DNA from: Escherichia phage ESSI2_ev129
Length of the DNA: 30,927 nucleotides
Sequence record: NC_049394.1
Reading direction: 5' to 3' (one strand)
Shown here one piece after another: positions 20,758 through 30,551 of the stretch. Both the position numbers and the translations under genes were made by a program. The notes under the pieces were generated by a model. It saw only the letters and a program-made list of their open reading frames with translations, was not told the DNA's origin and ran no database searches. Positions within the stretch are counted from its first letter, which is position 1, and each line of letters starts with the position of its first letter.

Positions 20758-22797
20758 CTACAACCACCCCGGCCACAGTTCCTGTAATGGCTCGTTTTGA
20801 GTCTCTTTAAGCCGCCCGTTGCGGTAAATCAGTGCGCCCTGACCAAATTTCAAACCACTCCCCCGCAGGAGAATGGCTATTTCTTCATCAGAACCATCAA
20901 AACCCCGACTGCGTAATTCCAGTTTTAACCGTCTGCGGGTTCCCCCCTCCGTACAGTTATTGACAGAACTCCAAGGGGCGGCGTTGCCGCCAGAAAAACC
21001 CGCCTCCGCTGGCGCTTCGGCCAGTTTCGCTACCTTCTGCCACTTCACCAAGCGCGTACATACCTCGGAATCTGGAACCAATGGAGAATAGACGCCCTGA
21101 ACACGCTGCACGTCCTCTGCGTATTCGTTTCCCTGTTCCGTAATTTCATAGGCCAGGCGAACAACCAGATCACGGCGGGGAACCAGTGCACCGCCCTGCG
21201 CCTGGGTATATGCAGCCCAGTCCCCGACATCAGCAGCGGCCAGAACCGCATCCATTCTGCGATCTGCCAGTACCTGATCCCGCAAACGACGCAGCTCACG
21301 CCAGACAGTTACCGGCGCACCACCAATCTGTTGAAACTGGCGAATACGCCAGCGTGAAGCCCACGCGGAAACGGACTTAGCCATATCACGCAGATTTTCG
21401 CCGGTTTCTTCGTCCTGCTCACCATCCAGCGCAAAACCATCAATATTTTTTGAAATGTATTTCGCGATGTAGCCCGTGGCCGAACCTTTGGCGGGATCGA
21501 TAGCTTCAACATGAAAACGCGCCTTCAGCGCCTTTTCAGATTGAAGTTCTTCAGAATCGGTAATTCTGGCGTGATAACAAAGAATATCGCGTACCGTGTC
21601 CACGTCCTGCGGACGCATAAAAAGCAACATATGCCAGTGCGGTGTCCCGTCATGGTGAGGCTCAACAACCCGAAACCCAAATACATGGATACCAGCACGC
21701 GAGATCGCTGCACGCGCTTTTGCCCATACGCCGCATAAATAGCGCTGGGTATCCTGCGGCGTACTTCCATCCCATTGCGATACAAAGCCACCTTTGCTGT
21801 GTACCGCATGGAAACGTGATGGTGCGGTGATGGTGTAAAACTCACCGGCCAGCCCTTCTTCATTTGCCATATCTTCAAACCCTCGCATTCTTACCATTAG
21901 CTCACAGCGACGGATCGCCGGATTTGCAACGCTGCGGTGTACCATGCTGTCCAGTGCAATGCGCAGCCCTTCATCATTCAGCAGATCAAACTTTTTAAAG
22001 AACTCCAGATTCCGCTTTTTCTGGTCTATCCATTCACCCAGTGTTTTGCGGGATACATAAGCGCTGGCCGCTTTTTGCACCTGCCCCACCGCGATGGCCA
22101 TGTGTTCGCGCTGCGTATCACGCGCACGTTTAAGACGCAGGTACCACCATTCCGGCGCCATCATGCGCAGTATCCCGGATTCCGCCTTACGCATTTCCAG
22201 TTGGCCTTCATTGGCCTCATGTTCAGCCCAGTACGGCGGCTGGTTATTCAGCATCAGGCAACATGCACAAAGATGTCGGTATGATTCCAGGGTGCGGCGA
22301 TACAGCTCTCTGGCGTCGTCAGTGCCGGAATCAAACTGTTCGGTGAAGTCATAAAGTGACTGGGAAATCCAGCCAGATACCTGGCCAGCCAGTTTTTTAA
22401 GATCAGGACGGTCTAGTGACGGCAAGCGCTCCAGCGACTTACCAAAAGGAAGATCAGCAGCATCAGCGGCCAGCGAGTAACGCGCAGCCACTTTTCGCAG
22501 ACGTGGCAATACACTCCCGCCGATGGTCTGGCGCAGGAATGTATTGGCACGGCGACGCCCGTCACGACCAGCAAAAAGCTTTTCATAGCGACGGCCAAAA
22601 TACCCGGCTAACCAGTCGGGTATCTCATGCAGGTACCGGGATCGCCATTCATAATCCTGCGGGTTTACAGCCCACAGGCGGCGTTCTGTGATTGTCGCGT
22701 CTGCCGGTGTACCAGGCGCAAAGGTTTCACGCCGCCAGGCATCGACGGCGTGATGTTGCCCCAGCTCTTGATGAAGGAAATCAGTATGCTCAGGCAT
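20758..22797 (-). CDS. A: Replication initiation protein (P2 gpA-like rolling-circle initiator/nickase)
   Basis: 679 aa; contains the tyrosine active-site-like segment SATGYIAKYISKNIDG characteristic of the gpA family; ATG 22795-22797 overlaps the upstream methyltransferase stop by 8 nt. Confidence 0.85.
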   Translation of the reverse strand: MPEHTDFLHQELGQHHAVDAWRRETFAPGTPADATITERRLWAVNPQDYEWRSRYLHEIPDWLAGYFGRRYEKLFAGRDGRRRANTFLRQTIGGSVLPRLRKVAARYSLAADAADLPFGKSLERLPSLDRPDLKKLAGQVSGWISQSLYDFTEQFDSGTDDARELYRRTLESYRHLCACCLMLNNQPPYWAEHEANEGQLEMRKAESGILRMMAPEWWYLRLKRARDTQREHMAIAVGQVQKAASAYVSRKTLGEWIDQKKRNLEFFKKFDLLNDEGLRIALDSMVHRSVANPAIRRCELMVRMRGFEDMANEEGLAGEFYTITAPSRFHAVHSKGGFVSQWDGSTPQDTQRYLCGVWAKARAAISRAGIHVFGFRVVEPHHDGTPHWHMLLFMRPQDVDTVRDILCYHARITDSEELQSEKALKARFHVEAIDPAKGSATGYIAKYISKNIDGFALDGEQDEETGENLRDMAKSVSAWASRWRIRQFQQIGGAPVTVWRELRRLRDQVLADRRMDAVLAAADVGDWAAYTQAQGGALVPRRDLVVRLAYEITEQGNEYAEDVQRVQGVYSPLVPDSEVCTRLVKWQKVAKLAEAPAEAGFSGGNAAPWSSVNNCTEGGTRRRLKLELRSRGFDGSDEEIAILLRGSGLKFGQGALIYRNGRLKETQNEPLQELWPGWL

Positions 22798-23800
22798 ACT
22801 GTCCCCCCATCAAGTAGGCTTTTATAAAAGCTGTCGCAGCTTCTGCATTCAGGGCGTTGCCATAGGTTCTAATTCGTCCCACTCTGGAGGAAGCCCCATT
22901 AACCAGAGGCTTAAGGCCGGATTTAATTGGCCTCCACTTTCCATCTCTGCACAGAAGCCAGTCAGCATCTTTCCAGAAGCCGTTAACCGCACCGGCCCCG
23001 CTATCTGAGCAACCACATCCAGCCTGTCTATCGACAGCTTGCCATTGCGAATCCTCCCCCCAGAATATCCGCCCTTGTGATCGCTCGCTGTTGGAGTCGG
23101 CCAGCCCGCTAACCTCGCCGCGCCGCCAAGCGTTGTACCTCGCTTCGGATGGTTTGCTGCCGCCCCCTCTCCTGAAATTTGATTGTTGTCCTGTGTAGTT
23201 GGAGTTGGCCACCCTGCAAGTTGAACCGCTGTTTGCAAGTTCAATCCCCCTTGACGGCCTGCATTGCTGGGATGTTTCCATGCATTCGCTGTCGGTGTTG
23301 GCCACCCAGTAAGTTCTGTCTCTGATATTCGGCGCACCGACGCTCGCAGCCGGAAACGCACACGCCCCGAAGGCATAGCCCATTGCTTCCATGTCAGCTT
23401 GTACAAGGTCGATCCAGTCGTTTGCGTGAGCACTCGCAGATTGCTCGCCAAAGATAACGAGAGGGCGGCGCTGCCCGACCAGCCAATGCATGGCGGGCCA
23501 TAAGTGCCGCTCATCAGCAAACCCTTTTCCTTTGCCTGCCGCGCTGAAAGGTTGGCATGGACATGATCCCGACCAGACTGGTTTATCTTCTGGCCATCCA
23601 GCACGGCGCAGGGCATATGACCAAACTCCAATCCCTGCAAAGAAATGGACTTGAGTGAATCCTCGCAAGTCGTCTGGATGGACATCTTCAATACTCCTTT
23701 CATCAACTTCACCGGCCATAATGCGACCGGCAGAAATATGCGTACGCAGTCGCTCTGCCGCAAACGGATCAATTTCGTTGTAATATGCGGAAGGTTTCAT
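22790..23800 (-). CDS. DNA (cytosine-5) methyltransferase, with a two-frame anomaly in its central region
   Basis: This frame carries motif I (FFAGIGVW), motif IV (GSCPCQPFSAAGKG), motifs VII-VIII (EAMGYAFG..GAPNIRDRTYWVA) and a motif-X-like C-terminus (YGNALNAEAATAFIKAYL). ATGA overlap with the Dam stop. A second same-strand frame (22849..23772) holds a triplicated LAGWPTPT module; see findings. Confidence 0.7.
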   Translation of the reverse strand: MKPSAYYNEIDPFAAERLRTHISAGRIMAGEVDERSIEDVHPDDLRGFTQVHFFAGIGVWSYALRRAGWPEDKPVWSGSCPCQPFSAAGKGKGFADERHLWPAMHWLVGQRRPLVIFGEQSASAHANDWIDLVQADMEAMGYAFGACAFPAASVGAPNIRDRTYWVANTDSECMETSQQCRPSRGIELANSGSTCRVANSNYTGQQSNFRRGGGSKPSEARYNAWRRGEVSGLADSNSERSQGRIFWGEDSQWQAVDRQAGCGCSDSGAGAVNGFWKDADWLLCRDGKWRPIKSGLKPLVNGASSRVGRIRTYGNALNAEAATAFIKAYLMGGQYA

Positions 23801-24648
23801 GCGCTGACCTCAACCGGAACAGGCCATTTAAGAATCAACTCTGCCGCCATTTTCGGGCTTGCAGCTGCCGCACCAACGCTACGCGGTGCATTCACCTGAA
23901 CAGCGTCAAACCCTGCATACAGGTAATGCACCATTTCCAAATCGCTGTTTGACGCGACCACCTTAATCCCACGTTCTGCCAGGCGTCGTAGCTTACGCGC
24001 CAACCGACCCTGATCCAGGTGCGAAAAACCGCGCTCATGGTAAGCGGTGAAATTGTCGGTATCAGTCAGATAAGGCGGATCACAGTAAACAACGTCACTC
24101 CCGCCCCGAACCAAATCGAGCGTTTCTGAATAGTGGGCAGTAATGAACGTTGCACGCTTCGCTTTTTCGGCAAAGGCGCGTATTTCATTGGCAGGGAAAT
24201 AAGGCTTCTTGTACTTACCGAACGGGACATTGAACTGACCACGGCGATTATACCGGCACAGGCCATTGAAGCAGTGCCGGTTCAGATACAGGAAACGCGC
24301 AGCATTTTCAATGGATTCAGAACCGGATTTACCGGACAGGTTGAAGGCATCCCGCACTGCGTAATAGAAAACTGCACGGTTTTCTTCATCGCCTAACGAA
24401 CCGGCAGTAAACAGGATCTCCAGCTCATTCAGCAGCGCATCAGTGTGATACGCCATCGCCTTATAAAGATTAACCAGATCAGGATTCACATCTGCGATCA
24501 GATACTCGTCATAATCCGTATTCATCATGACGGCGCAGGAACCTGCGAACGGTTCAACCAGGCGTTTACCTTCTGGAAGGTGCGGACGCAGCTTAGGCAT
24601 AAGGCGGGCTTTGCTGCCCACCCATTTAAGCGGAGTTTTAACGGCCAT
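23797..24648 (-). CDS. dam: DNA adenine (N6) methyltransferase, Dam family
   Basis: 283 aa. N-terminal [19 protein letters not shown] (AdoMet motif) and catalytic VYCDPPYL (DPPY). GGAGG Shine-Dalgarno 6 nt before ATG 24646-24648. Confidence 0.85.
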
Positions 24649-24967
24649 ATTGACCTCCGCCAGCTAACACCTCAGTGACACCGTTTGAAATGATGTATTC
24701 CAGCACTTCAAGCGGCGACAGTGAACAGATGGACAAAACCGCCCAGTTTTCAGTATCAGCGATAATTTCATTTACAGGCAAAACATGGGTGATAACCGCC
24801 GCCCACTCACGCCCGGTGTATTTCCCGTGCTTCCACTCACACAGTGAAAGAACATCACCGGTTTTGTACCCGCGATCGTTTTTTCGCAGTTCGGCCTTTT
24901 TCTGGCCAGCCACTACTGCATCAAGGTATTTCGGCGCAATCTTTATCGTGTGGATTTTGATTGTCAT
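24638..24967 (-). CDS. Small PUA/ASCH-like domain protein (DUF3850-type, tentative)
   Basis: 109 aa, ATGA overlap with the exonuclease stop, 11-nt overlap with the Dam start. Family recalled from N-terminal [40 protein letters not shown]; not verified. Confidence 0.4.
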
Positions 24968-25668
24968 TTTGCACCGCCTTCTGCAATAGCAAGGATCACA
25001 CCAAGCGTCAGATTGCAGTCATACAACGCTCTATGTGGTGCACCTTCTCCGGCATCAACCTTAAGCGCCGCCGCTGCATCCACAAGTCGTTTCCAGCGGG
25101 TTTTACGGCGTACAACATCCCATTCACCGTTATAATCTGCGTACAGCTGCATTACGCACTCAGGGGTGCGTATATCCTCATGCTGTTCATAATCCCCACC
25201 AGACTGGCGCAACATACGCGCATCAAATTTTGCGTTATATGCGACCCAGCCCTTACTTGTTAACTCCAATACTTTCGGCAGAATTTCCAACCATGATGGT
25301 GCATTAGCAACCATTTCATCCGTAATACCGTGAATTGCAGTTGCCGCTTCTGGAATAGGTTTCGATGGCTTGACCAGCGTATTAAGCAAAACGTAACCAG
25401 CACAGTCGATGATCGAAATTTCTACAATTTCATCATCAAATCCTAGTCCTGTGGTTTCTGTATCAAGAATGACAAAGCCCTTATCAATCCAGCGCTTTGC
25501 TATCTGCTGTTCAGTTTCCAGACGGTCGGAAAAATACAGAGACTGATCGGTGATCCTCCAACACTGGCGAATCACATCGCGCAACGAAGCCCCTTCTTTA
25601 GCTCTGGCACCAGAAACCACCCCACCCAAAATGGCCGAAAAAAGTTGATTGCGAGCGCTCAATTCCAT
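24964..25668 (-). CDS. 3'-5' exonuclease, DnaQ-like (DEDDh)
   Basis: Track start is a TTG; refined to ATG 25666-25668 (MELSARN...). Exo I motif ILDTETTGL, Exo II-like VAYNAKFD, Exo III HRALYDC. Confidence 0.8.
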
Positions 25669-25913
25669 GCCGCACCGCCTTTGCTGCAAATCACTGCGGC
25701 TTCTTCGCGGATTAACTCAACGATTTCCGCTGCGCTTAAACCTTCACTGGCTGCATGGGTGGCCAGCTTATCCAGACGGGTGGAACACAGATCAGCAGCT
25801 GCGGCTTTACCTTCCTGCGTGGCTTTGGTGAGCATGTCCTGCCACACGGAAAAGGCATACTCAATCCGATATTCGAATTGTTTTCTGGCAAAAATTTCTC
25901 TTTCTTTATTCAT
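25659..25913 (-). CDS. Hypothetical early protein
   Basis: 84 aa, ATG 25911-25913 with AAGGAA Shine-Dalgarno; overlaps the exonuclease start by 10 nt. No motif recognised. Confidence 0.5.
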   Translation of the reverse strand: MNKEREIFARKQFEYRIEYAFSVWQDMLTKATQEGKAAAADLCSTRLDKLATHAASEGLSAAEIVELIREEAAVICSKGGAAWN

Positions 25914-25980
25914 TTTCAGTTCCTTAAGGCAAAAGAATCCCCGGCCACTTGAACCGTGACCAAAAAATTCGGACAGTTAA

Positions 25981-26382
25981 TTAGTGAAAAGTGGGTTGTA
26001 CTGTGGCGGCTGAGTAGTTCGGTGCCGGAATCAGGTGCAGCTCATAGGTTGTCCGCCACCACTCCTGGATCATCGCTATTATCTCGCCAACACCCAGCGC
26101 CCCGGCTGTATAGAAAATTGCACGAATCCCCGCCAGCGCTTCTATCTGGGCTTCTTTGCTTTCCGCTTCGCGATACACGCAGCACCAGAAAGCGGCATTG
26201 ATCGCCAGCCAGTGACGCGGATTTGTCATGTGTTCAGTGTCATTGAAGAAGAACGGATGCAAAGCGATACGCCCATTTTTACTGGTGCTTTTCTCTGCAA
26301 ACGCTAATGCGTAGTTATGCGGGACGCCCCACACAGCCAGCTCTGCCCCCAACGATTTGCCCTCAACGGAAATAATGGTCAT
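25981..26382 (-). CDS. Hypothetical early protein
   Basis: 133 aa; ATG 26380-26382 overlaps the upstream stop by 1 nt. No motif recognised. Confidence 0.5.
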   Translation of the reverse strand: MTIISVEGKSLGAELAVWGVPHNYALAFAEKSTSKNGRIALHPFFFNDTEHMTNPRHWLAINAAFWCCVYREAESKEAQIEALAGIRAIFYTAGALGVGEIIAMIQEWWRTTYELHLIPAPNYSAATVQPTFH

Positions 26383-26810
26383 TAGTGATTCCCCTGTTGC
26401 TGGAACTTATGGACGATATGCGGCGCGATCACCATCTGCACCCCGCCACTGCTATAAATGGGATGTACTTTTTTGATCGGGCGGTTCGCGGTGCGCTTCG
26501 AAAAATCGCTGTCACGTAAACTGCCGAAACCTTCAAACGTTAACCGCGCCCGTGAAATGCCCTGGCGCAGTTGAATCATGTCCCGATAGCCCAGGCGTTC
26601 ATAAATCTCACGCCAGCAGCACTTACTTAAATGGGCTTTAAATGCCCCGGTACCAGATGTAACCGCAGCAGCATGAAGCACTACGCCGCGCCACTCCGGT
26701 GTTAAGTTGTCCCACCATTCAGCGGCCTCGCTGCTTTCGCTGAAGTATTTGCGGCGGATCTGTTTTAAATGCTCCAGCCCGCGCTTTTGCTGTTCCTGGC
26801 TAATCGCCAT
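26382..26810 (-). CDS. Hypothetical early protein
   Basis: 142 aa; ATG 26808-26810 preceded by a G-rich Shine-Dalgarno; overlaps the upstream ORF by 11 nt. No motif recognised. Confidence 0.5.
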   Translation of the reverse strand: MAISQEQQKRGLEHLKQIRRKYFSESSEAAEWWDNLTPEWRGVVLHAAAVTSGTGAFKAHLSKCCWREIYERLGYRDMIQLRQGISRARLTFEGFGSLRDSDFSKRTANRPIKKVHPIYSSGGVQMVIAPHIVHKFQQQGNH

Positions 26811-27027
26811 AGCGCCCCCCTATACATCCAACCAGGCGACGGGCTTTTGTAGACAAGAAACGCAAAACCGCCCCGCTTTTCATTCGAACAGGCTCATGCG
26901 CATTGAATTTATACGTGTGGCCTGGGTTCCAGCGCTGGCCGTTCGGCAGTTCTATCCAGCCCGTTGAACCACTCGGCAACTGCATGGCTGGTGATTCTTT
27001 TTTCAGGTAAGTGACAAACGCTTTCAT
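26800..27027 (-). CDS. Hypothetical early protein (position analogous to 186 fil/dhr-type genes)
   Basis: 75 aa; ATG 27025-27027 with GAGGGA Shine-Dalgarno, 9 nt after the CII stop. Confidence 0.5.
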   Translation of the reverse strand: MKAFVTYLKKESPAMQLPSGSTGWIELPNGQRWNPGHTYKFNAHEPVRMKSGAVLRFLSTKARRLVGCIGGRYGD

Positions 27028-27036
27028 GGTGTTCCC

Positions 27037-27540
27037 TCACATCAGGCCGGTGGCGTTGGTTGTGACCAGATCCACCGCAGCGGCCAGAACTGGCGCAGAG
27101 TGAATACGGCTTTCAACGGTATAAGCCAGCACGGATAAGCTACGGATTGCATCGCGGGCACGATCCAGAATTTGAGTACGGCGGGCGGCGGTCATATGGC
27201 CAGTTGATACGGCTTCCCCAGCAATCGCGCCCACACACGCAGTAGCGCTCAACGCGCAAAATTGCATGTTGGCTTCAGTGGCGTTATTGACTGGAACGGA
27301 GGGCAAGCAGTTAATCTGCCCCAGCATCCCATCAAGTAAACGAGCATCTTCCGTGTAATCGGTGATAGCCAGCAGCTCGTCACAGGTCAGGCGGTGCGGT
27401 TGAACCGGGTTCAACTTATTGCGCAGGATCTGCGGACGCATACCAACGGCAGCGGCCACATCTTCCAGATTGTGCGACAGCGCAAACGCTCGGCAAGCTG
27501 CATCAAAATGTGCATGTTTGGAAGTTTGGTAATCAAACAT
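27037..27540 (-). CDS. cII: Phage regulatory protein CII (186-type lysogeny establishment factor)
   Basis: Track start is a GTG; refined to ATG 27538-27540. N-terminus MFDYQTSKHAHFDAACRAFALSHN..LRNKLNPVQPHRLTCDELLAITDYTED parallels 186 CII; 167 aa. Confidence 0.75.
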   Translation of the reverse strand: MFDYQTSKHAHFDAACRAFALSHNLEDVAAAVGMRPQILRNKLNPVQPHRLTCDELLAITDYTEDARLLDGMLGQINCLPSVPVNNATEANMQFCALSATACVGAIAGEAVSTGHMTAARRTQILDRARDAIRSLSVLAYTVESRIHSAPVLAAAVDLVTTNATGLM

Positions 27541-27572
27541 AGTCAGCACCCTCTCTGCGTTTCAAAATCGAA

Positions 27573-29933: not shown

Positions 29934-30551
29934 ATGACTTCCTACGACCAACTTAAAGAATGTATCCGCCTTGAAGTCATCGGCCATGACAAATCCTTTT
30001 CATGGCGTAAAGCGTTACTTCGTACCCGGCGTAATCAGAAGAAGCACTTCCTGTTCTGGTGGCGCATCGCTTCATGGCTCTATGGCCAGAATAGTAAGTT
30101 CAAAAAACGCATTGCCCGCAGAATTGAAAACCGCCTCAAGTACCGGCACAGCGTTGATATTTCCCTCTCCTGCAAAATTGGCAAGGGTTTAAACATTGCT
30201 CATCTGAACGCAATTGTTATTACTGATAATTGCGTGATTGGTGATTTTGCCGACCTGAAGCAAGGCATCACCATAGGGTTACGCACAGACAGTGCCGACG
30301 CGATGATAGTCATTGGCGATCATGTTGATATTGGCTGTAACTCGTCCATTCTGGGCGGCAAGGTAACGATCGGTAATAATGTCACCATTGGGGCGCATTC
30401 ACTGGTACTTCAGAACATCCCCGACGACACCGTTTATAAAAACAAAATTATGCCGGTGTACACGTCAAAACTGCCACAGCAGGAAAATCAGCCTTTCGTC
30501 ACGGGTAATGCGACAAAGGAAGCGCCCCGTTCCGCAGAAGTAGCACTGTAA
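29934..30551 (+). CDS. Hexapeptide-repeat (left-handed beta-helix) acetyltransferase, serine-acetyltransferase/WcaB-like
   Basis: 205 aa; AGGA Shine-Dalgarno 9 nt before the ATG. Hexapeptide repeats ..ITDNCVIGDFADLKQGITIG..VIGDHVDIGCNSSILGGKVTIGNNVTIGAHSLV... Markedly AT-rich gene and flanks compared with the rest of the window. Confidence 0.7.
   Translation: MTSYDQLKECIRLEVIGHDKSFSWRKALLRTRRNQKKHFLFWWRIASWLYGQNSKFKKRIARRIENRLKYRHSVDISLSCKIGKGLNIAHLNAIVITDNCVIGDFADLKQGITIGLRTDSADAMIVIGDHVDIGCNSSILGGKVTIGNNVTIGAHSLVLQNIPDDTVYKNKIMPVYTSKLPQQENQPFVTGNATKEAPRSAEVAL

Follow-up and report, generated by a model that had tools for sequence, protein, structure and literature searches.

The early regions of phages 186 and P2 are the closest described counterparts of the genes analysed here. 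The 186 region runs through cII, fil, dhr, the terminator tR1, CP79 (DUF2732), CP80 and CP81 (exonuclease), and that of P2 through cox, orf78, B, a terminator and orf80 (DUF2732). Replication protein B of P2 (gpB), annotated in the P2 record as an essential replication protein, reportedly binds the host helicase DnaB and takes the place of DnaC in lytic replication; amber mutants of P2 in B accumulate single-stranded DNA. Phage 186 is said to need host dnaC. We analysed a 30,927-nucleotide stretch of Escherichia phage ESSI2_ev129 (NC_049394.1; hereafter the window, by which we mean the whole stretch), a Peduoviridae (P2/186-like) prophage, and focused on four small open reading frames (ORF1 to ORF4) between cII and an exonuclease gene. 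The locus shares with 186 a CI repressor, an Apl/Cox-like protein and cII, a Fil-family gene right after cII, and the series of terminator (here, a terminator-like hairpin), DUF2732 gene and DnaQ-like exonuclease gene. It differs in having ORF2 and ORF3 where 186 has dhr (66 amino acids); 186 has neither a B-like gene nor ORF3.

Our analysis identifies the four-gene block as the conserved core of an early lytic operon in a Peduoviridae prophage of the 186-like type (CI/Apl/cII-regulated), and as mostly ordinary. As a whole it is best explained, in our judgement with a little more confidence than doubt, as an ordinary early operon that comprises Fil, a gpB-like ORF2, an ORF3 partner, a terminator and a DUF2732 protein. 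Four ‘mystery’ early genes are largely accounted for in this way, a gene that RefSeq lists as hypothetical gains a usable annotation, and the main remaining interest lies in the ORF2–ORF3 module, which may be a split helicase loader.

Profile comparisons that run via intermediate families tie ORF2 by remote homology to replication protein B of P2. The lead came from tblastn, which pointed to Yersinia phage vB_YenM_324, a phage with the order cII, fil, gp07, gp08, DUF2732 and A. The depositors annotated gp07 as ‘replication protein GpB’, and a hidden Markov model (HMM) of the ORF2 family gives this protein 53 bits. In the PHROG families, gp07 matches phrog_33841 (E = 1e-8), the functionally unassigned family to which ORF2 itself belongs, as well as phrog_5349 (E = 8e-6) and phrog_14551 (E = 1.4e-5). 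P2 B (phrog_235) matches phrog_14551 (E = 1.2e-11), phrog_602 (E = 1e-9) and phrog_5349 (E = 1.7e-5), and gp08 of Vibrio phage PV94, a member of phrog_5349, also matches phrog_235 (E = 3e-4).

To these matches we added genes found upstream of distant homologues of ORF3, gathered from 219 viral loci, aligned and compared by local hhalign. The clade of the window aligns with short B-like proteins of the Yersinia/Serratia type (probability 99.7%, E = 2e-25). The latter align both with the Vibrio PV94 gp08 family (97.7%, E = 1.7e-12) and with ‘minimal’ B-like proteins of 93–130 amino acids (95.8%, E = 8e-9), and the minimal proteins align with P2 gpB (97.6%, E = 3e-12). When the short B-like families are merged, the match to gpB spans 83 columns and gpB residues 15–104 (97.1%, E = 7e-11). 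Controls with reversed alignments and three unrelated neighbouring families gave probabilities of at most 2.4%, with E ≥ 0.02. The link to gpB emerged only once the divergent members of the ORF2 family upstream of distant ORF3 homologues had been included. Common to ORF2 and gpB is a motif that reads W/Y-x-x-L-x4-R-G/L-hydrophobic3-H-A, followed by a helix that ends in R-x-G-I/F and then by D-F. P2 B is counted among bacterial helicase loaders (PMC12661323, citing Odegrip et al. 2000), and by analogy ORF2 is predicted to bind or load DnaB. The small phage helicase hijackers outside the AAA+ class (lambda P, SPP1 G39P and T4 gp59) resemble ORF2 by functional analogy only.

The position of the gene agrees with this assignment. 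ORF2 occupies the slot of P2 gpB (PF26815, phrog_235), after a small basic gene of the orf78/Fil type and ahead of the terminator and the DUF2732 gene. It is unlike gpB (166 amino acids) in that it has 142 amino acids and a tail with an MVIAP motif, has no C-terminal domain and is always paired with ORF3, a gene missing from P2-type phages. The features of the block and its boundaries are as follows.

27037–27549, minus strand: cII, the activator of lysogeny establishment and upstream boundary of the block (Pfam Phage_CP76, E = 1.1e-46; phrog_101)
26800–27027, minus strand: ORF1, 75 amino acids, Pfam PF10893 (Fil)
26382–26810, minus strand: ORF2, 142 amino acids, short gpB-like protein, phrog_33841
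25981–26382, minus strand: ORF3, 133 amino acids, phrog_3935
25928–25966, minus strand: terminator-like hairpin, from a pattern scan, conservation and position
25659–25913, minus strand: ORF4, 84 amino acids, Pfam PF10809 (DUF2732)
24964–25668, minus strand: DnaQ-like 3′–5′ exonuclease, the downstream boundary (Pfam RNase_T, E = 3.3e-20; 50% identity to 186 CP81)

In the wider window the order is integrase, 186-type CI repressor, Cox/Apl-like gene, cII, ORF1 to ORF4, exonuclease, DUF3850/ASCH, Dam, C5 methylase and A; Pfam confirms replication protein A (Phage_GPA, E = 1e-104) and the 186-type CI repressor. A first-pass annotation, made from the letters of the sequence, had placed the four ORFs in the leftward early operon, with cII on one side and the exonuclease on the other, and the Phage_CP76 and RNase_T matches of the flanking genes bear this out. 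The four reading frames and their coordinates, with the ATG starts and Shine–Dalgarno sequences that it had reported, are confirmed by the list of ORFs and by the sequence: each opens with ATG, 4–7 nucleotides after a purine-rich Shine–Dalgarno-like motif (GAGGGA at 5 nucleotides for ORF1, GGGGGG at 4 for ORF2, AGGGGA at 7 for ORF3 and AAGGAA at 6 for ORF4). Overlaps of 1–11 nucleotides had been described throughout. This holds for ORF1 and ORF2 (11 nucleotides), for ORF2 and ORF3 (1 nucleotide, TAATG) and, if the exonuclease starts at the ATG at 25668, for ORF4 and the exonuclease (10 nucleotides), but not for ORF3 and ORF4, which are separated by a spacer of 67 nucleotides that contains the conserved terminator-like hairpin. 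ORF1 starts 9 nucleotides past the stop of cII, a layout also seen in 186.

All four ORFs are genuine genes under purifying selection; the low ratios of non-synonymous to synonymous substitution rates (dN/dS) and the recurrent gene order go beyond what chance would give. Median pairwise dN/dS, computed against homologues with dS > 0.15, is 0.14 for ORF1, 0.09 for ORF2, 0.09 for ORF3 and 0.24 for ORF4, compared with 0.095 for cII. Among the 80 closest viral loci, the order cII, Fil, ORF2, ORF3 and DUF2732 is kept in essentially all that are sufficiently long, with a single locus that has no detectable DUF2732 gene. In these loci the four genes stay constant, whereas the set of exonuclease, DUF3850, Dam and C5-methylase genes differs from locus to locus. 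The DNA of the 2-kb region is 97% identical to that of Escherichia phage ESSI2_ev040, with the same gene order, and 82–94% identical to ESSI2_ev015, one Salmonella phage and chromosomal copies in Escherichia coli. The prophage region occurs in 32 of 5,426 complete E. coli genomes, with one chromosomal copy in each, and also in many Salmonella, Citrobacter, Enterobacter and Klebsiella genomes. The same four-gene block, with differences in sequence only, is found in Cronobacter phage ESSI-2, ESSI2_ev040, ESSI2_ev015 and vB_YenM_324 (gp06–gp09); the last of these lacks the exonuclease, ASCH and methylase cassette, and A directly follows DUF2732. In the records of ESSI-2, ESSI2_ev040 and ESSI2_ev015, the counterparts of ORF2 and ORF3 are labelled hypothetical.

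ORF2 is a basic protein (isoelectric point (pI) 9.9) of a family that is confined to Enterobacteriaceae, with 105 clusters that are, without exception, labelled hypothetical. It has no match in Pfam, NCBIfam or PADLOC; the copy of Pfam that was searched was without PF26815 (gpB), and P2 B itself gave no match there. The AlphaFold2 (AF2) model is helical, with a mean predicted local distance difference test (pLDDT) of 65, values of about 75–81 in the core (residues 28–93) and a poorly predicted tail. We divide the protein into a helical core (residues ~20–103) and a low-confidence tail (residues 104–142) that carries the conserved MVIAP motif. Invariant positions in the family are W33, D34, R41, G42 and H46, together with the MVIAP tail. 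The C-terminal domain of gpB (residues ~105–166) is absent: the alignment stops at about gpB residue 104, and the tail of ORF2 is unrelated.

ORF3 matches phrog_3935, a family of unknown function, over its full length (E = 1.1e-51). The same family takes in PV94 gp10 and vB_YenM_324 gp08, the latter 50% identical to ORF3. The family is narrow: when 1.84 billion representative proteins were searched exhaustively with its profile, 35 clusters were recovered. Its invariant residues include W58, W66, E81, R87, W108 and W109. The protein is mildly acidic (pI 6.0), and its AF2 model is confident (pLDDT 85; predicted template-modelling score 0.82), with a small N-terminal β-α-α-β-β unit followed by a helical bundle. 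Nothing was found for it in Pfam, NCBIfam or PADLOC, and a fold search returned no informative structural match.

What is most telling about ORF3 is the company that it keeps. A B-like gene lies upstream of the ORF3 homologue in about 180 of the 219 viral loci, directly adjoining it in enteric loci and one or two genes away in some Vibrio loci. The stop of the B-like gene and the start of ORF3 overlap by 1 nucleotide in 75 loci and are at most 13 nucleotides apart in nearly all. In an independent set of loci anchored on short B genes, ORF3 is present in 34 of 35, the 35th ending at a contig edge. By comparison, none of 160 loci with a long, P2-type gpB has ORF3 (cII is present in 27 of these 160), and ORF3 was not found in the early region of P2 or of 186. 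This distribution supports, short of proof, a physical or functional partnership with ORF2. P2 orf81 (phrog_265, ‘replication initiation protein’) occurs in 114 of the 160 long-gpB loci (L225–L384) and in 1 of the 219 ORF3 loci, and is therefore a second gene with a distribution complementary to that of ORF3.

The Vibrio P2-like phages have extra families between cII and the ORF3 homologue (loci L159–L224 and L007). One of them is an acidic, coiled-coil-like family (G9, phrog_5843), represented by PV94 gp09 (L007:4309-4785). Another, X3, is a 136-amino-acid family that fills the B slot in 36 Vibrio loci and could have taken the place of the loader without being homologous to it; we considered it as a B-like protein, and hhalign found no detectable similarity to gpB.

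Together, these data are consistent with the following course of events. During lytic growth, Fil would delay division of the host cell. ORF2, like B, would bind the host DnaB helicase and help to load it onto the strand that is displaced once the A protein nicks the origin, and lagging-strand synthesis could then start without host DnaC. ORF3, translationally coupled to ORF2, may act as an accessory subunit, and possibly stands in for the C-terminal domain of the long P2-type B that is missing in short B-like proteins. An intrinsic-terminator-like hairpin at the position of 186 tR1 would follow, and then the DUF2732 protein, which is probably dispensable. Within this scheme, the most specific proposal is that ORF2 and ORF3 form a split, two-subunit DnaB loader in which ORF3 is an obligate co-factor that supplies the role of the long-B C-terminal domain; we put this forward tentatively, as a suggestion that we think has well under an even chance of being right.

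If ORF2 does load DnaB together with ORF3, 186-like phages of this kind would, unlike 186, have no need of host DnaC. The P2 B class of loaders, which is poorly understood and structurally unsolved, would gain both a new partner protein and a minimal core domain some 85 residues long. A split loader would moreover define a new family of helicase-loader accessory proteins in the Peduoviridae of Enterobacterales and Vibrionaceae.

Several observations weigh against this interpretation. For ORF2, the shared part is the N-terminal core of gpB alone (~85 residues, gpB 15–104), and the link passes through two intermediate families. The gpB HMM scores 0.0 bits on ORF2, and hhalign of the close ORF2 family against gpB gives E = 0.064 and a probability of 0.9%. 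Because the direct match to gpB fails, we place ORF2 in a gpB-like superfamily, outside the gpB family proper. Structure offers little help: a Foldseek search of the low-confidence ORF2 model (pLDDT 65) against BFVD found nothing, and searches of the Protein Data Bank (PDB) with single sequences and with profiles of ORF2, ORF3 and gpB returned nothing below E = 0.1, so that none of the three families has a solved structure there. For the partnership, ORF3 comes after family X3, which has no detectable similarity to B, in 36 Vibrio loci, and lineage (shared descent) could by itself explain why ORF3 and long gpB have complementary distributions. The idea that ORF3 is the counterpart of the gpB C-terminal domain receives no support from sequence comparison, in which hhalign found no similarity between the two. 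Phage 186 replicates without a B-like gene and without ORF3, and plasmid replication driven by P2 A can reportedly do without B.

The same slot invites a different interpretation, in which ORF2 and/or ORF3 are host-takeover proteins that replace Dhr and depress replication of the host chromosome, for example by sequestering DnaB. Flanked by fil and the tR1-like terminator, the two genes fill exactly the place of dhr; no function can be assigned to ORF3; and proteins that bind DnaB in the manner of B or lambda P can reportedly inactivate the helicase, lambda P being one that depresses host DNA synthesis. Similarity to Dhr is lacking, however: no BLASTP match of the four ORFs is better than E = 0.97, and phrog_6069 is matched by none of them. 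ORF2 has relatives that are homologous to a replication protein essential in P2, and the ORF2–ORF3 pair is strictly conserved beside replication genes under selection as strong as that on cII. We consider a dedicated takeover role for the pair unlikely, with enough in its favour to be kept in mind, and it overlaps the replication-operon explanation rather than excluding it. BLASTP searches of the four ORFs with P2 Orf78, Orf81, Orf82 and Orf83 and with 186 CP80 and CP82 were likewise negative, and the literature on 186 fil and dhr and on vB_YenM_324 yielded nothing useful.

The analogy to 186 that the first-pass annotation had drawn, in which this interval encodes host-takeover functions (fil and dhr), holds for ORF1, which belongs to the Fil family of host-takeover proteins, and breaks down for dhr, which has no homologue here and whose slot holds ORF2 and ORF3. 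ORF1 matches Pfam PF10893 (Phage_186_Fil; E = 5.7e-10, 39.2 bits against a cut-off of 25) over residues 1–37 only, as well as phrog_7623 and phrog_816 (‘cell division inhibitor’). BLASTP aligns it at 39% identity with residues 7–36 of 186 Fil, and conservation with 186 Fil is limited to its N-terminal ~37 residues. The protein is basic (pI 10.3), and in RefSeq its homologues carry the name ‘phage filamentation protein Fil family protein’. According to the 186 record, cell division is blocked when fil is overexpressed. We regard ORF1 as a Fil-family protein and, by analogy, as a putative inhibitor of cell division. The C-terminal half of Fil (window 26800–26900) differs in sequence and length among relatives: the protein has 75 amino acids in the window and in ESSI2_ev040, 57 in E. 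coli prophages (EH09-18-41) and 67 in vB_YenM_324. Only the long form overlaps the start of ORF2, and short forms end in a basic, tryptophan-rich tail, RRxWW...LMGL.

ORF4 belongs to the DUF2732 family, corresponds to CP79 of 186 and Orf80 of P2, and is probably dispensable. It matches Pfam PF10809 (E = 6.2e-11, 42.6 bits against a cut-off of 25) and phrog_128, and in BLASTP it is 39% identical to P2 Orf80 (E = 3e-7) and 29% identical to 186 CP79 (E = 4e-5), a gene that the 186 record annotates as non-essential. It sits after the early terminator position, as do the DUF2732 genes of 186 and P2. The earlier statement that none of the four proteins has a recognizable motif consequently applies to ORF2 and ORF3, which have no match in Pfam or NCBIfam, and not to ORF1 (PF10893) or ORF4 (PF10809). 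The first ~26 residues of ORF4 (MNKEREIFARKQ..., window 25836–25913) bear no relation to the start of the protein in its closest phage relatives (MHMTRQDLPATK..., in E. coli EH09-18-41 and ESSI2_ev040), to which the rest of the protein is 95% identical. Both N-terminal versions recur in related loci, and a recombination junction therefore lies within the gene.

Small early genes of unknown function that are expressed ahead of replication are natural candidates for anti-defence proteins, and it was as candidates for host shutoff or anti-defence that the four genes had originally been put forward. Inhibition of host immune systems by ORF2, ORF3 or ORF4 would also accord with the lack of an informative match for the ORF3 fold and with the mosaic N-terminus of ORF4, the least constrained of the four (dN/dS 0.24). 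Yet no library that we searched attaches a defence or anti-defence label to any of them: PADLOC-DB gave no match at E ≤ 0.1, and no annotation of this kind came from Pfam, NCBIfam or PHROGs, no dedicated anti-defence library being among those searched. The genes are an invariant core under strong selection, present in ~80 close and 140 distant loci, unlike variable cargo, and the methyltransferases, which are likelier anti-restriction cargo, lie in the variable downstream cassette. Confident homology to a characterised replication accessory protein had been named in advance as a finding that would speak against the candidacy, and remote homology to such a protein, P2 B, is what we obtained for ORF2. 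An anti-defence function therefore appears quite improbable for these genes.

The spacer between ORF3 and ORF4 contains an intrinsic-terminator-like hairpin, 15–43 nucleotides past the ORF3 stop. In relatives its stem reads GGCCAC-N5-7-GTGGCC; in the window it begins with GGTCAC, which makes one G–U pair, and U–G pairs can lengthen the stem. The sequence after the hairpin is UUCUUUUGCC. The hairpin is kept across relatives, with changes in the loop and G–U wobbles in the stem, and its position is that of the annotated tR1 of 186 and of the putative terminator of P2. On the basis of this position and conservation, we infer that it acts as a terminator. Two results count against this: the number of pattern matches in the region is no higher than in shuffled sequences, and the RNA fold is not more stable than that of shuffled sequence (z = 0.22). 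The 186 record states that the terminators of the early region are anti-terminated in lytic growth. We think it very improbable that ORF3 is instead a regulator of early transcription, such as an antiterminator or DNA-binding factor that acts at the downstream hairpin and has no direct role in replication, because the protein, whose modelled β-α-α-β-β unit could be a small nucleic-acid-binding module and whose gene ends just before a conserved hairpin in a region with anti-terminated counterparts in 186, matches no helix–turn–helix, winged-helix or antiterminator family or fold, is mildly acidic, directly precedes other genes or A in a different arrangement in Vibrio, and has no homologue in 186, which has tR1.

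Between DUF2732 and A lies an accessory cassette of variable content (window 22790–25689, minus strand), here made up of exonuclease, DUF3850/ASCH, Dam and C5 cytosine methylase. In close relatives the cassette is mostly Dam alone; a few loci have the exonuclease and/or DUF3850, and the C5 methylase occurs in about 1–3 loci. The exonuclease is the first gene of the cassette and is present in only a minority of related loci. Anti-restriction or anti-defence cargo, if there is any, is likelier to reside here than in ORF1 to ORF4. A TTG-initiated ORF of 307 amino acids (22849–23772, minus strand) lies in another frame wholly within the C5-methylase gene (336 amino acids, 22790–23800). It contains three copies of a GWPTPT motif and has no Pfam match; a repeated segment in the variable region of the methylase probably gives rise to it as a shadow ORF.

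Just past the integrase, at the end of the prophage, is a hexapeptide-repeat acyltransferase gene (29934–30551, plus strand) of low GC content (~0.43). Its equivalent in ESSI2_ev040 is annotated as a serine acetyltransferase, and the gene looks like a lysogenic-conversion moron.

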